Below are positions 55,339 through 61,045 of a stretch of DNA of 64,000 nucleotides, in pieces. Source of the DNA: Escherichia coli O157:H7 (GTDB taxonomy: Bacteria; Pseudomonadota; Gammaproteobacteria; Enterobacterales; Enterobacteriaceae); NCBI RefSeq assembly GCF_013167455.1, contig NZ_CP038328.1. One strand, given 5' to 3'. The translations under genes and the position numbers were made by a program. The first letter of the stretch is position 1. Each line of letters opens with the position of its first letter. Below the pieces are notes generated by a model that saw only the letters and a program-made list of their open reading frames with translations, made no database searches and was not told where the DNA came from.

Positions 55339-55653
55339 TTATCTTTTTTTGAAAAAAATTAAGATAAGAAAAAGAACAATATTTGTTACAGGAAATCCCC
55401 CCAAAACTCCCCAGTACTTACTCCATCCTAGAGACATCGTATATCTACCAAGGATTTGACAAAACCCAAAACTTAACCCTATACCTATACTTCTTAAATT
55501 TAATGTCGTAGTCAGGCTTAAAATAAATAGAACAAGGATGGTAATAGCCCACCACAATAACCATGCCTTAACAAAATCAGATTTTTTGCTGTAAGGTTCT
55601 TTACCCAAGAACAACTGCCAAAAGTTACCATTTCCCATATAGAATCCATTCAC
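55339..55653 (-). CDS. Hypothetical small membrane protein (104 aa, about 3 predicted TM helices)
   Basis: Open frame in very AT-rich DNA where stops are frequent by chance; hydrophobic segments AWLLWWAITILVLFILSL, IGIGLSFGFCQILG, VTNIVLFLILIFF; no family assigned. Confidence 0.55.
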   Translation of the reverse strand: MNGFYMGNGNFWQLFLGKEPYSKKSDFVKAWLLWWAITILVLFILSLTTTLNLRSIGIGLSFGFCQILGRYTMSLGWSKYWGVLGGFPVTNIVLFLILIFFKKR

Positions 55654-55853: not shown

Positions 55854-56240
55854 ATGTTCAAATCATCCATCAGAAATATATTCTACCCATCCAAGCTTGA
55901 GCGTTTATCACGCTTTCAGTTCATAATCTATACATTAACATCATGGTCAATATTAATAACTTTGAATGATATCAACCTGGCTTTGAGTTTTATTCTGGTT
56001 ATTAATAATACCTATGTAAATATCAATATTGGAGCAAAAAGAATAAGAGATACTGGATGTAAGGCAATCTACTTTGTATTGATTTCATTGGGTTTGACAC
56101 TTTTTTCTATTATCTCTGCAGCAATTGAAGGGGTGAGATGTGAGTCATTAAGCGTCCAACTCAACGTGGCATGGATATTATTCACAACAATTATGTTATC
56201 TGCGATTCCCTCTGCTAAAATGTCGCTGTCAGCACACTAA
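55854..56240 (+). CDS. Hypothetical inner-membrane protein, DUF805(YhaH)-like (128 aa)
   Basis: ORF in AT-rich DNA; motifs LERLSRFQF and KRIRDTGCKA resemble the DUF805 signature (GRxxRKEYW ... RRLHDxxxSG) from memory; several TM segments. Confidence 0.6.
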   Translation: MFKSSIRNIFYPSKLERLSRFQFIIYTLTSWSILITLNDINLALSFILVINNTYVNINIGAKRIRDTGCKAIYFVLISLGLTLFSIISAAIEGVRCESLSVQLNVAWILFTTIMLSAIPSAKMSLSAH

Positions 56241-56264
56241 CTTACTCACAGCGACATCGTATAG

Positions 56265-56409
56265 TTACAGCCAGTTCTTGCGCTTAAAGTACAGATACGG
56301 TGCCAGGCCCGCGAGGATCATAAAGATAATCGCGCCTGGGTAGCCGAAACTCCACTTCAGTTCTGGCATAAACTCAAAGTTCATGCCATAGCTGGAGGCA
56401 ATCGGCGTA
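56265..56409 (-). repeat. Duplicated 3' end of corA (gene fragment; direct repeat of 57976-58120)
   Basis: About 145 bp nearly identical to the genuine corA 3' end; encodes ...[44 protein letters not shown] in frame; identity decays toward the inner edge. Confidence 0.9.
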
Positions 56410-56597
56410 GGAAAAAGTTTCCTAATCGGTAAATTCAATATTTTGTTATTAACAATGAGCAAGACCAATCATTAACGACGTTCTCTTCAGAGATGTAATG
56501 AAAAAATGTGAAGTGTACTTCTTTTTTAAATATTTTTTTACCCTAGCATTTGTTCTCAAATTGATATTGAGCTTAAATATAACCAAGGAAAATGTAA

Positions 56598-57446
56598 ATG
56601 AATAACACATTACTTCCATCAATTAATATTCCCTGTACACTTTTCGAAACTATTAGTTTATTTGATAATTATTCTGCTGATGATATGCAATATGGTGATA
56701 TGGTAGAACAAGATTTTCTCTCACTCGGCCTAAGCGATATCTCAGCAAAAGTTGATCCTTACAGACTTATTAAATACCATTTCCCTGGCCCAGGTTCTAT
56801 TAATGTTGCTTTTAGTGCCTCAAGTTCCGGAACAAAAATATCACAACGTGAATGCACTGATATTTTATTTGCAGAAATGAAAGAACTAGCAAAAATGTTT
56901 TCCTTTTTTGGACAATATAAAACACTTATCGAAGATCTGATTGAACATTTTAGATATGGAAATGGCAGCAATTTTCATAGCCAACAATTAAATTTATCTT
57001 TTCATGAAAAAATAAATAAATATGGTTATAATAGTCCAATACGAATAATCAAAGAATGTATCGAAAATGGCATTAATTCAACTCCCTCGACAGGATACCA
57101 ACCTCTTATCCTGCAAAGCATTAAAACCAAATTACTTTCATCAAGACTAAATAAATTTAATGACTTCGAGGACAGTTTTAATGGCTTAGGAATCAGTGTT
57201 CATGATATTTCAGCTCAAAAAATATCTCTTTTAAGTTTTCAAAAATACGCTATAGGATGGAGTGCAACAATTCATTTTGTAGCACAGGACCACTTCGGTC
57301 TTGATGTAACTGATATCAAAAACAAGACTTACAGCAAATATAGATTTTTTCGCATATGGTTCTTTTTACAACGGCATAAAGACTTTGCTTTCAAACCTTT
57401 TTTCACCAATTTTAACACTATCGAAAGAATCGAAAATTATCTATGA
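56598..57446 (+). CDS. Hypothetical protein, 282 aa, no signal peptide, no recognised family
   Basis: 849-nt ORF in about 30% GC DNA (estimated by eye), which is improbable by chance; AAGGA SD 9 nt upstream of ATG; stop overlaps next ORF start (ATGA). Confidence 0.8.
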   Translation: MNNTLLPSINIPCTLFETISLFDNYSADDMQYGDMVEQDFLSLGLSDISAKVDPYRLIKYHFPGPGSINVAFSASSSGTKISQRECTDILFAEMKELAKMFSFFGQYKTLIEDLIEHFRYGNGSNFHSQQLNLSFHEKINKYGYNSPIRIIKECIENGINSTPSTGYQPLILQSIKTKLLSSRLNKFNDFEDSFNGLGISVHDISAQKISLLSFQKYAIGWSATIHFVAQDHFGLDVTDIKNKTYSKYRFFRIWFFLQRHKDFAFKPFFTNFNTIERIENYL

Positions 57447-57934
57447 AAAGCAAACTCCAAAAAATTATATTATGTTTATTTCTTCTATGCTGCATCTATA
57501 ATTTATGGACATTGCGTCCTGTACAGATTTTGTATACATACTCTGATGCTGGCAATTCAGTCTTTCTGGTCGTTGATCATCTGCCATGGACTGACAGCGA
57601 TAAAATAAATTGGTATCTGAAGCATCAGAATGAAATTAAAAATCAACATCCCCTACCAGAAGGTAGTTGGCATACCTGGTATGTCATTGATATCGGTAAT
57701 GGCTTCACTGACTATAAAAAATATATCGAAGGGCCGTATGAAGATCTCTACTGTTTCCCGACAATTAAGAGCAATGATAATTGCATCACGAAAAATTACT
57801 TAATGGTTATTAATGAATACCCTTATCGTAACACTCATATTGGTATTAACGATTTTACTGAGTATCAATTAACACAAGAAAATAAAATAGAGCAAGTTTT
57901 CAATCCGCATAACTTTAAAAAAGACAATTTTTAG
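57443..57934 (+). CDS. Hypothetical membrane-anchored or secreted protein, 163 aa
   Basis: N-terminal K-rich then hydrophobic stretch (MKSKLQKIILCLFLLCCIYNLWTL) typical of signal peptide/anchor; translationally coupled to upstream ORF; ends 41 nt before convergent corA stop. Confidence 0.75.
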   Translation: MKSKLQKIILCLFLLCCIYNLWTLRPVQILYTYSDAGNSVFLVVDHLPWTDSDKINWYLKHQNEIKNQHPLPEGSWHTWYVIDIGNGFTDYKKYIEGPYEDLYCFPTIKSNDNCITKNYLMVINEYPYRNTHIGINDFTEYQLTQENKIEQVFNPHNFKKDNF

Positions 57935-57975
57935 AAATAAGCCGGATAAAAAAATAGCTTTATCCGGCACTCATA

Positions 57976-58926
57976 TTACAACCAGTTCTTCCGCTTAAAG
58001 TACAGATACGGTGCCAGGCCCGCGAGGATCATAAAGATAATCGCGCCTGGGTAGCCGAAACTCCACTTCAGTTCTGGCATAAACTCAAAGTTCATCCCGT
58101 AGCTGGAAGCAACCAGCGTTGGCGGCAGGAACACGACGGATACCACCGAGAAAATTTTGATGATGCGGTTCTGCTCGATGTTGATAAAACCCATTGCCGC
58201 CTGCATCAGGAAGTTCACCTTCTGGAACAGGGATTCGTTATGCGGCAGCAGGGATTCGATATCTCGCAGGATTTCACGCGCCTGCTCCAGTTGCCCACCC
58301 GGTAAGCGTGCTTTACGTACCAGGAAGTTGAGCGCGCGCTGGGTATCCATCAGACACAGGCGCACTTTCCAGCCGATATCTTCCAGTTCCGCCAGAGTGG
58401 AGAGCGCCTCGTCGTACTCATCGCCCTGATGCCCTTCCATAATCACCCGGCTCAATTGCTCCAGGTCGCTATAGATATTTTCAATTTCATCTGCCAACTG
58501 TTCGATTTTGGTTTCGAACAGATCCAGCAGCAACTCGTAGGCGTTACCGTCTACCATCGACTGGCTACGGGCACGCATACGATACAGACGAAAAGCGGGC
58601 AGTTCACGCTCACGCAGAGTAAACAGACGACCATCACGGATGGTAAATGCCACAGTGGAGTTACCGGCGTGATCTTCCGCATCTTCAAAGAAGAAGAAGG
58701 AGTGAATATGCAGGCCGTCATCGTCTTCAAAGAAACGTGCCGATGCTTCGATGTCTTCCAGTTCCGGGCGGGTTGCCAGGCTCTGGCCAAGTTCAGATTG
58801 TACGCGCAGTCGCTCGTCGTCGTCCGGTTCGACAAGATCAATCCATACTGCATTTACAAGGGGTTGTGACTCTTCGACTTCCAGCCGGGTCAGTCGGTTA
58901 TTTTCCAGTTGAAATGCGCTCAGCAT
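57976..58926 (-). CDS. corA: Magnesium/cobalt transporter CorA
   Basis: [43 protein letters not shown]... with [10 protein letters not shown] signature near C-terminus; 316 aa. Confidence 0.96.
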
Positions 58927-60142: not shown

Positions 60143-61045
60143 ATGAAAAAAACGCTCGCAACGTTATTTTTATTAACGTGTCTGGGATCATCATCCGCTT
60201 ATGCGGATAACGCTTTGATTTTACAAACTGATTTTAGCCTGAAAGATGGTGCCGTCTCGGCGATGAAAGGGGTCGCATTCGGTGTTGACCATAATCTTAA
60301 AATATTTGATTTAACACACGAAATTCCACCGTATAACATCTGGGAAGGCGCTTACCGCCTGTATCAGACCGCCAGTTACTGGCCGCAAGGTTCGGTATTT
60401 GTCAGTGTGGTCGATCCGGGCGTAGGCACTGACCGTAAATCGATAGTGCTGAAAACCAAAAACGGTCAATACTTCGTTTCACCGGATAACGGTACGCTCA
60501 CTTTGGTGGCGGAATCGCTGGGTATTGAGAGCGTCCGGGAAATCGACGAAAAAGCTAACCGCCTGAAAGGTTCTGAAAAGTCATATACCTTCCACGGTCG
60601 TGACGTGTATGCCTACACCGGTGCACGTCTGGCTTCCGGGGCGATCACGTTCGAGCAGGTGGGGCCTGAGCTTCCTGCAAAGGTTGTCGAACTTTCTTAT
60701 CAGAAAGCAAAAGCAACAAAAGGTGAAGTGAAGGGCAATATCCCGATTCTCGATATTCAGTACGGCAACGTCTGGAGCAATATCAGCGACGAGTTGCTGA
60801 ATCAGGCGGGGATCAAACTCAACGACACGTTGTGTGTGACCATTTCCGAAGGTTCCCGGCAAAAATACGCAGGGAAAATGCCGTATGTCGCAAGCTTCGG
60901 CGATGTGCCGGAAGGACAGCCGATGGTGTATCTGAACAGCTTATTGAATGTTTCCGTGGCGCTGAATATGGATAATTTCGCGCAGAAACATCAGGTTGCG
61001 TCTGGTGCTGACTGGAATATTGATGTGAAGAAATGTGATAAGTAA
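60143..61045 (+). CDS. SAM hydroxide adenosyltransferase-like (DUF62 / chlorinase-fluorinase fold) protein with N-terminal signal peptide
   Basis: 300 aa; signal peptide MKKTLATLFLLTCLGSSSAYA then family motifs QTDFSLKDGAVSAMKGV, VVDPGVGTDRKS, FVSPDNGTLTLV, YGNVWSNISDELLNQAGI (recalled from fluorinase/SalL-type enzymes). Confidence 0.75.
   Translation: MKKTLATLFLLTCLGSSSAYADNALILQTDFSLKDGAVSAMKGVAFGVDHNLKIFDLTHEIPPYNIWEGAYRLYQTASYWPQGSVFVSVVDPGVGTDRKSIVLKTKNGQYFVSPDNGTLTLVAESLGIESVREIDEKANRLKGSEKSYTFHGRDVYAYTGARLASGAITFEQVGPELPAKVVELSYQKAKATKGEVKGNIPILDIQYGNVWSNISDELLNQAGIKLNDTLCVTISEGSRQKYAGKMPYVASFGDVPEGQPMVYLNSLLNVSVALNMDNFAQKHQVASGADWNIDVKKCDK

Follow-up and report, generated by a model that had tools for sequence, protein, structure and literature searches.

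The 163-aa protein encoded at 57443..57934 (+) of the window, by which we mean the whole 64,000-nucleotide stretch of the Escherichia coli O157:H7 chromosome that was analysed, very probably confers immunity to the DUF3289 toxin whose gene lies directly upstream, as its cognate partner. The initial annotation had proposed an immunity protein, an antitoxin or an accessory subunit for an upstream effector. Its immunity proposal is supported by the published assignment of DUF3289 as toxin and DUF943 as immunity protein (PMC11148199), by the conserved membrane anchor and Cys pair, and by the DUF3289 gene upstream; the accessory-subunit alternative found no such support. The relationship between DUF3289 and DUF943 is already known, having been published in 2024 for these two Pfam families. 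For the O157 pair itself, we infer the binding, the enzymatic target, the disulfide and the delivery route.

A DUF3289 gene and a DUF943 gene overlap between rarD and corA

The window carries the genes recQ-pldA-yigI-rarD on one side of the pair and corA-yigE-uvrD on the other, and many O157 genomes match its segment 56200-58100 at 100% identity. The 163-aa ORF starts with ATG, and its product begins with MKSKLQKIILCLFLLCCIYNLWTL. The protein matched Pfam DUF943 (PF06092) with an E value of 1.7e-26 (93.1 bits, model positions 1-149 of 151), and RefSeq names it "DUF943 family protein" (WP_000837557.1). The ORF is a real gene, as seen from the DUF943 match, the RefSeq annotation and a dN/dS of 0.17-0.22. 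No NCBIfam model matched the 163-aa protein, and neither the protein nor a profile of 100 family members gave a significant match to the PDB sequences.

The upstream gene, at 56598..57446 (+), encodes a 282-aa stand-alone effector, which matched Pfam DUF3289 (PF11692) over residues 10-278 with an E value of 2.1e-84 and NCBIfam TIGR03034 ("YPO3983 family") with 439 bits against a cutoff of 156. RefSeq names it "DUF3289 family protein" (WP_001066403.1). The Pfam search revealed no PAAR, VgrG or Hcp domain in this protein, and the sequence analysis revealed no signal peptide. A type II toxin-antitoxin system was considered as well and rejected, since the 163-aa protein is membrane-anchored, is predicted to face the periplasm, and contains no antitoxin domain of Pfam or NCBIfam.

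The two genes share the tetranucleotide ATGA at 57443..57446 (+), in which the stop codon of the effector gene and the start codon of the immunity gene overlap, as the initial annotation had noted. A Shine-Dalgarno-like AAGGA is located 8 nt 5' of the effector ATG (56585..56589, +), and no comparable motif was read off the sequence 5' of the immunity ATG, which fits translational coupling. The further claim that the overlap implies stoichiometric co-expression goes beyond what the ATGA supports, namely coupling, with stoichiometric expression not necessarily implied.

Downstream, the DUF943 stop codon ends at 57934 and the stop codon of the minus-strand corA begins at 57976, confirming the 41-nt gap given previously for these convergent genes. 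Within the gap, a GC-rich hairpin, GCCGGATAAA...TTTATCCGGC, with an 11-pair stem and a T-run toward corA, resembles a terminator (57941..57968, without an assigned strand). It is the sole terminator-like site in 56200-58100, a count that is not above the shuffled expectation and hence weak evidence. The promoter scan returned fewer sigma-70-like sites than were found in shuffled sequence, and no promoter is claimed.

A partial corA duplicate borders the module

A partial duplicate of the corA 3' end, comprising its last 147 nt, lies at 56265..56411 (-) and forms the left boundary of the low-GC module. It is a direct repeat with 95% identity to its counterpart in the intact corA (57976-58122), it starts exactly at the stop codon, it aligns with the corA 3' end of K-12, and in RefSeq it is listed as a pseudogene for a partial CorA. 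Between the two corA copies the GC content is 30-37%, against about 50% in the sequence on either side. Through these repeats, the module could be gained or lost. As a separate observation, two diagnostic sites in the partial copy are closer to the K-12 corA allele than to the intact O157 corA.

The rarD-corA interval exhibits at least four arrangements among E. coli strains. K-12 has rarD-yigG-yigF-corA without the pair, and BL21 has rarD-yigG-yigF-corA'-pair-corA. The strains K-15KW01 and MLI109 have rarD-pair-corA, as in Salmonella, and O157 is BL21-like, with two different small ORFs replacing yigG and yigF. These small ORFs, at 55339-55653 (-; 104 aa) and 55854-56240 (+; 128 aa), are very AT-rich and both encode hydrophobic proteins, and the segment that contains them was found in 1463 of the 5426 genomes. 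The 128-aa ORF showed a weak match to NCBIfam PRK11371 (E 5.5e-6, far under the cutoff) and is unannotated in the RefSeq strain PA20. Elsewhere in the window, between yigE and uvrD, the ORF at 60143-61045 (+) encodes a 300-aa protein with a signal peptide at a place where K-12 has no gene; RefSeq names it an S-adenosyl-L-methionine hydroxide adenosyltransferase family protein.

The DUF943 protein is predicted to be anchored in the inner membrane and to face the periplasm

The 163-aa protein contains exactly one hydrophobic segment, at approximately residues 7-24, for which the Kyte-Doolittle 19-residue window reached a maximum of 1.79; no other such window in the protein exceeded 1.6. Three Lys residues and no acidic residue precede the segment (+3 charge). 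From hydropathy and charge, codons 7-24 (57461..57514, +) are predicted to encode a transmembrane signal anchor with the N-terminus inside and the C-terminal part in the periplasm. For the family as a whole, a search over 1.84 billion representative proteins yielded 127 DUF943 representatives, 102 of which were full-length and were used for conservation. A comparable N-terminal helix was present in 94 of these 102 members, with a median start at residue 7 and a median preceding net charge of +2. A lipoprotein was ruled out, as there is no lipobox ([LVI][ASTVI][GAS]C) within the first 40 residues.

The initial annotation had left open whether this N-terminus is a signal peptide or a type II anchor. 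The single N-terminal hydrophobic helix was confirmed. It is more likely a type II signal anchor than a signal peptide that is cleaved, because of the hydrophobic stretch of about 18 residues, the absence of an AxA-type site and the confident model helix at residues 2-23. It seems improbable that the immunity role is unchanged but that a Sec signal peptide is cleaved to leave a soluble periplasmic protein. The layout of an n-region followed by an h-region does resemble a signal peptide, and the sole possible signal-peptidase site, L-W-T|L after residue 23, would release such a mature form. However, this site is poor, with a Thr at -1, which is rare, the hydrophobic run exceeds typical signal-peptide h-regions, and the AlphaFold helix is continuous and confident. 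The published homologue T6IC1 is also predicted to have a transmembrane helix at residues 7-26 (PMC11148199).

The Cys pair claimed for the mature part (CFPTIKSNDNC) is likewise present and conserved in the family. It corresponds to codons 104-114 (57752..57784, +), and C104 and C114 are retained in 97% and 95%, respectively, of the 102 full-length members, 91 of which have exactly two Cys residues outside the anchor. The further near-invariant positions P48, W57, G87, F105 and K117 are all present in the O157 protein. C104 and C114 likely form a periplasmic disulfide that closes a beta-hairpin, as suggested by their conservation and by their placement on adjacent model strands. On the basis of sequence features, namely the positive-inside charge, the single helix and the conserved Cys pair, the DUF943 protein is predicted to face the periplasm, and the anchor and the conserved Cys residues together would mark it as a type II-anchored protein whose extracytoplasmic domain is stabilised by a disulfide.

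Sequence and structure comparisons suggest a possible link to a solved effector-immunity complex

The AlphaFold2 model of the DUF943 protein, computed with the family alignment, had a mean pLDDT of 93.4 and a pTM of 0.84. It consists of a helix at residues 2-23 (pLDDT above 90) followed by an alpha/beta domain, in which both Cys residues lie on adjacent strands, E102-104 and E114-116. The model of the effector was of moderate quality (pLDDT 68), because its alignment contained only relatives of at least 57% identity.

For the effector, residues 188-272, including the conserved DHFGLD motif, matched PDB 9jdi_A and 9jg8_B by sequence (E 9e-6 for 9jdi_A), both of which carry the name "DUF3289 family protein". 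The top Foldseek match of the effector model was also 9jdi_A, the C-terminal domain of BtpeA (E 7e-7, probability 1.00). The second Foldseek match was PaeM (4g76), at an E value of 0.37 and a probability of 0.08 with the model of pLDDT 68. This PaeM match is not significant, and the link of the effector to colicin M therefore rests on the literature.

PDB 9jdi is reportedly the effector-immunity complex of the BtpeA C-terminal domain with BtpiA from Bacteroides fragilis, said to have been described by Li and colleagues in Cell Host Microbe in 2025. The best fold match of the DUF943 protein was the immunity chain of 9jdi, but Foldseek did not recover BtpiA. By sequence, no similarity between the DUF943 protein and BtpiA (9jdi chain C) was detectable, with 10% identity and a negative profile search. 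The comparisons thus suggest that the two adjacent genes may encode counterparts of both chains in a single solved effector-immunity complex, which would support the immunity role, with the BtpiA match having been missed by Foldseek.

The N-terminal residues 1-28 of the effector (56598-56681) were modelled as disordered (pLDDT about 31). Nevertheless, S8, P12, T14, L15, F16 and E17 are invariant or nearly so across relatives at 57-85% identity. In an effector without PAAR, VgrG or Hcp, this N-terminal motif may serve in binding or delivery.

The pairing is conserved across distant gene contexts

In 10 of the 11 gene contexts examined, a DUF3289 gene lies directly upstream of the DUF943 gene, usually with a 4-nt overlap. 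In Salmonella enterica (L003-L005), the pair occupies the same rarD/corA position and the overlap is 1 nt. In Enterobacter (L002, L008, L009), one pair or two tandem pairs lie amid housekeeping genes. DUF3289-DUF943 pairs were also found in the soil metagenomes L006 and L007, and L018 contains a stand-alone pair. The 4-nt overlap recurs in the distant pairs L006, L007, L008, L009 and L018. In L016, the upstream fragment corresponds to a DUF3289 C-terminus (E 1e-20). L019 (GCA_018257325.1) contains two PAAR-DUF3289 fusions, each followed by a DUF943 gene. The exception among the 11 contexts is L017, a contig of 1.1 kb.

No T6SS genes were found beside the stand-alone pairs in the contexts examined, and these pairs, being away from T6SS genes, are regarded as "orphan" modules. 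Two of the contexts showed additional features. At L019 9001-9963 and 10527-12258, the tandem PAAR-DUF3289 genes and their DUF943 partners are accompanied by two DUF943 fragments of 95 and 93 aa, which appear to be the remains of an additional immunity gene that was split or has decayed. On L017, the short ORF at 178-393, upstream of a distant DUF943 gene, begins with MTEMNDLYLKVDRIAGESKDANHLGWINI and by eye resembles the N-terminus of Hcp (TssD).

Among 5426 complete E. coli genomes, the pair was present in 2648, in every case chromosomally, and its most diverged alleles had about 89% nucleotide identity. Compared with the diverged alleles and with Salmonella, dN/dS was 0.11-0.20 for the effector and 0.17-0.22 for the immunity gene; these low values indicate that both genes are maintained by purifying selection. 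At synonymous sites the effector had diverged by 0.38-0.44, two- to threefold more than the flanking genes corA and rarD (0.11-0.19). For strain MLI109 (L012 2501-3837, compared with 56598-57934 of the window), the pair is a mosaic, with 88% nucleotide identity in the effector and 98.6% in the immunity gene, which indicates a recombination breakpoint inside the module or at the junction of the pair.

The pair is remote from the known T6SS cluster

According to the annotation of the window, no VgrG, PAAR, Hcp or adaptor gene adjoins the O157 pair. The T6SS cluster of O157 Sakai is located at aspV and comprises Hcp, TssB, TssC, TssM (ImpL), ClpV, VgrG and Rhs, with one pseudogene; the O157 pair lies megabases away from it. 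Given this distance and the lack of a PAAR, VgrG or Hcp domain in the 282-aa protein, delivery by that T6SS is a putative route.

For BL21 (L013, L015), the pair is intact and 99% identical to the O157 pair, and the aspV locus holds only IS elements. The retention of the pair in a strain with an empty aspV T6SS locus means that T6SS delivery cannot explain its retention in every strain.

Discussion

The closest precedent is the effector-immunity pair of Yersinia pseudotuberculosis IP32881, in which a PAAR-DUF3289 protein, T6EC1, is encoded in a T6SS operon (Geller et al., 2024, Mol Syst Biol; PMC11148199). In that work, toxicity of the Yersinia DUF3289 domain in E. coli BL21 was seen solely when it was directed to the periplasm, whereupon the cells became round, and co-expression of the downstream DUF943 protein, T6IC1, rescued the cells (PMC11148199). 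T6IC1 was predicted to have residues 1-6 inside, a transmembrane segment at 7-26 and the remainder in the periplasm; the structural similarity of DUF3289 to the colicin-M-like PaeM (4G76) was called "striking", and re-annotation of both Pfam families as toxin and immunity was proposed (PMC11148199). The O157 pair resembles T6EC1/T6IC1 in its two Pfam families, in the position of the immunity gene directly downstream on the same strand and in the predicted topology. T6EC1 is a PAAR fusion from a T6SS operon, whereas the 282-aa O157 effector stands alone and is encoded, together with its DUF943 partner, as an orphan module of two genes between rarD and corA.

In a survey of Klebsiella, DUF3289 and DUF943 clusters were linked 780 times (PMC12469244). 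In Aeromonas jandaei, the orphan DUF3289 effector WP_042032936.1 is secreted by the T6SS and kills cells without its immunity gene (PMC12135965). The O157 pair is similar in that an orphan DUF3289 effector is followed directly by a gene for a small membrane-associated immunity protein, whereas the Aeromonas immunity protein has 95 aa, a signal peptide and three TM helices and is not described as DUF943 (PMC12135965). This different immunity protein indicates that DUF943 is not the only solution for DUF3289.

The BtpeA/BtpiA pair belongs to a different phylum, and BtpeA differs from the O157 effector in having 608 aa and several domains and in being a component of the spike complex. A further analogue lies in the logic of colicin M and its immunity protein Cmi, in which, as proposed here, a toxin against lipid II or the cell-wall pathway in the periplasm is met by a membrane-anchored immunity protein. 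Cmi is anchored in the inner membrane via an N-terminal helix and exposes a periplasmic domain. A Cmi-like immunity protein was nevertheless rejected, as the 163-aa protein had neither a sequence nor a fold match to Cmi.

On the basis of these comparisons, the proposed mechanism is as follows. The effector and immunity genes would be co-transcribed, and through the ATGA the immunity gene would be translationally coupled to the toxin gene. The immunity protein would reside in the inner membrane via a single uncleaved N-terminal helix, at approximately residues 7-24, with its N-terminus in the cytoplasm, and would display in the periplasm an alpha/beta domain of about 140 residues, probably stabilised by a Cys104-Cys114 disulfide. 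This domain would bind DUF3289 toxin that is injected by a sibling cell or has leaked, and the binding would block a periplasm-acting, cell-wall-damaging activity, proposed to resemble the cleavage of lipid II by colicin M. Because of the solved Bacteroides complex and the published AlphaFold-Multimer models, inhibition is presumed to occur by direct binding that would occlude the conserved face of the toxin.

It is very improbable that the 163-aa protein instead acts as an accessory protein, chaperone or adaptor for the stability, export or loading of DUF3289, and is no inhibitor. Tight gene coupling would be equally typical of effector-chaperone pairs, and an effector without a delivery domain might need a helper, but the known T6SS adaptors and chaperones are cytoplasmic, whereas the 163-aa protein is predicted to face the periplasm and has a conserved Cys pair. 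Moreover, the best fold match, which Foldseek did not recover, is an immunity chain and no adaptor, and the homologue T6IC1 neutralises toxicity (PMC11148199). The chance that the DUF943 gene encodes an unrelated small membrane protein and is adjacent to the DUF3289 gene by coincidence is negligible: the arrangement persists in 10 of 11 contexts, even where DUF943 identity falls to about 25%, a conserved pairing that effectively refutes coincidence, and the two proteins have as their top matches both chains of a single crystal complex, with the DUF943 match not recovered by Foldseek.

We also regard it as unlikely that the pair is independent of the T6SS and constitutes an addiction-like toxin-immunity module or a purely defensive island at the rarD-corA hotspot. 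Such a role would accord with the orphan state of the pair in E. coli, Salmonella, Enterobacter and metagenome contexts, and with the intact pair of BL21 beside its empty aspV locus, a comparison that leaves room for other T6SS clusters in BL21. It would also accord with the count of 2648 genomes with the pair against 2279 of the 5426 with O157-type tssBC genes, which are totals and not an overlap. However, an effector without a signal peptide could not reach the periplasm of its own cell to enforce addiction, PAAR-fused DUF3289 proteins occur in L019 and in Yersinia T6EC1, and the orphan stand-alone DUF3289 protein of Aeromonas is secreted by the T6SS (PMC12135965). An immunity protein against the upstream DUF3289 toxin, putatively delivered by a T6SS, remains our preferred reading. 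Two more speculative readings, to which we jointly assign a low probability, go beyond it: that DUF943 would be a very remote homologue of BtpiA, which would make the pair an ancient one common to Proteobacteria and Bacteroidota, and that the PAAR-less module would be mainly a defensive immunity island or would use an unrecognised route via the N-terminal motif of the effector.

BL21, the host of the published DUF3289 toxicity assays, carries its own DUF943 gene, which evidently gave no protection against the Yersinia toxin. This suggests either that immunity is allele-specific or that the native DUF943 gene is poorly expressed, and it may bear on how those assays are interpreted.

The result is mostly practical and opens no new question. 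Two genes that were annotated as domains of unknown function can be annotated as a cell-wall-toxin/immunity pair in O157:H7, in BL21 and in about half of the complete E. coli genomes, and this annotation bears on the competition between strains in the gut.
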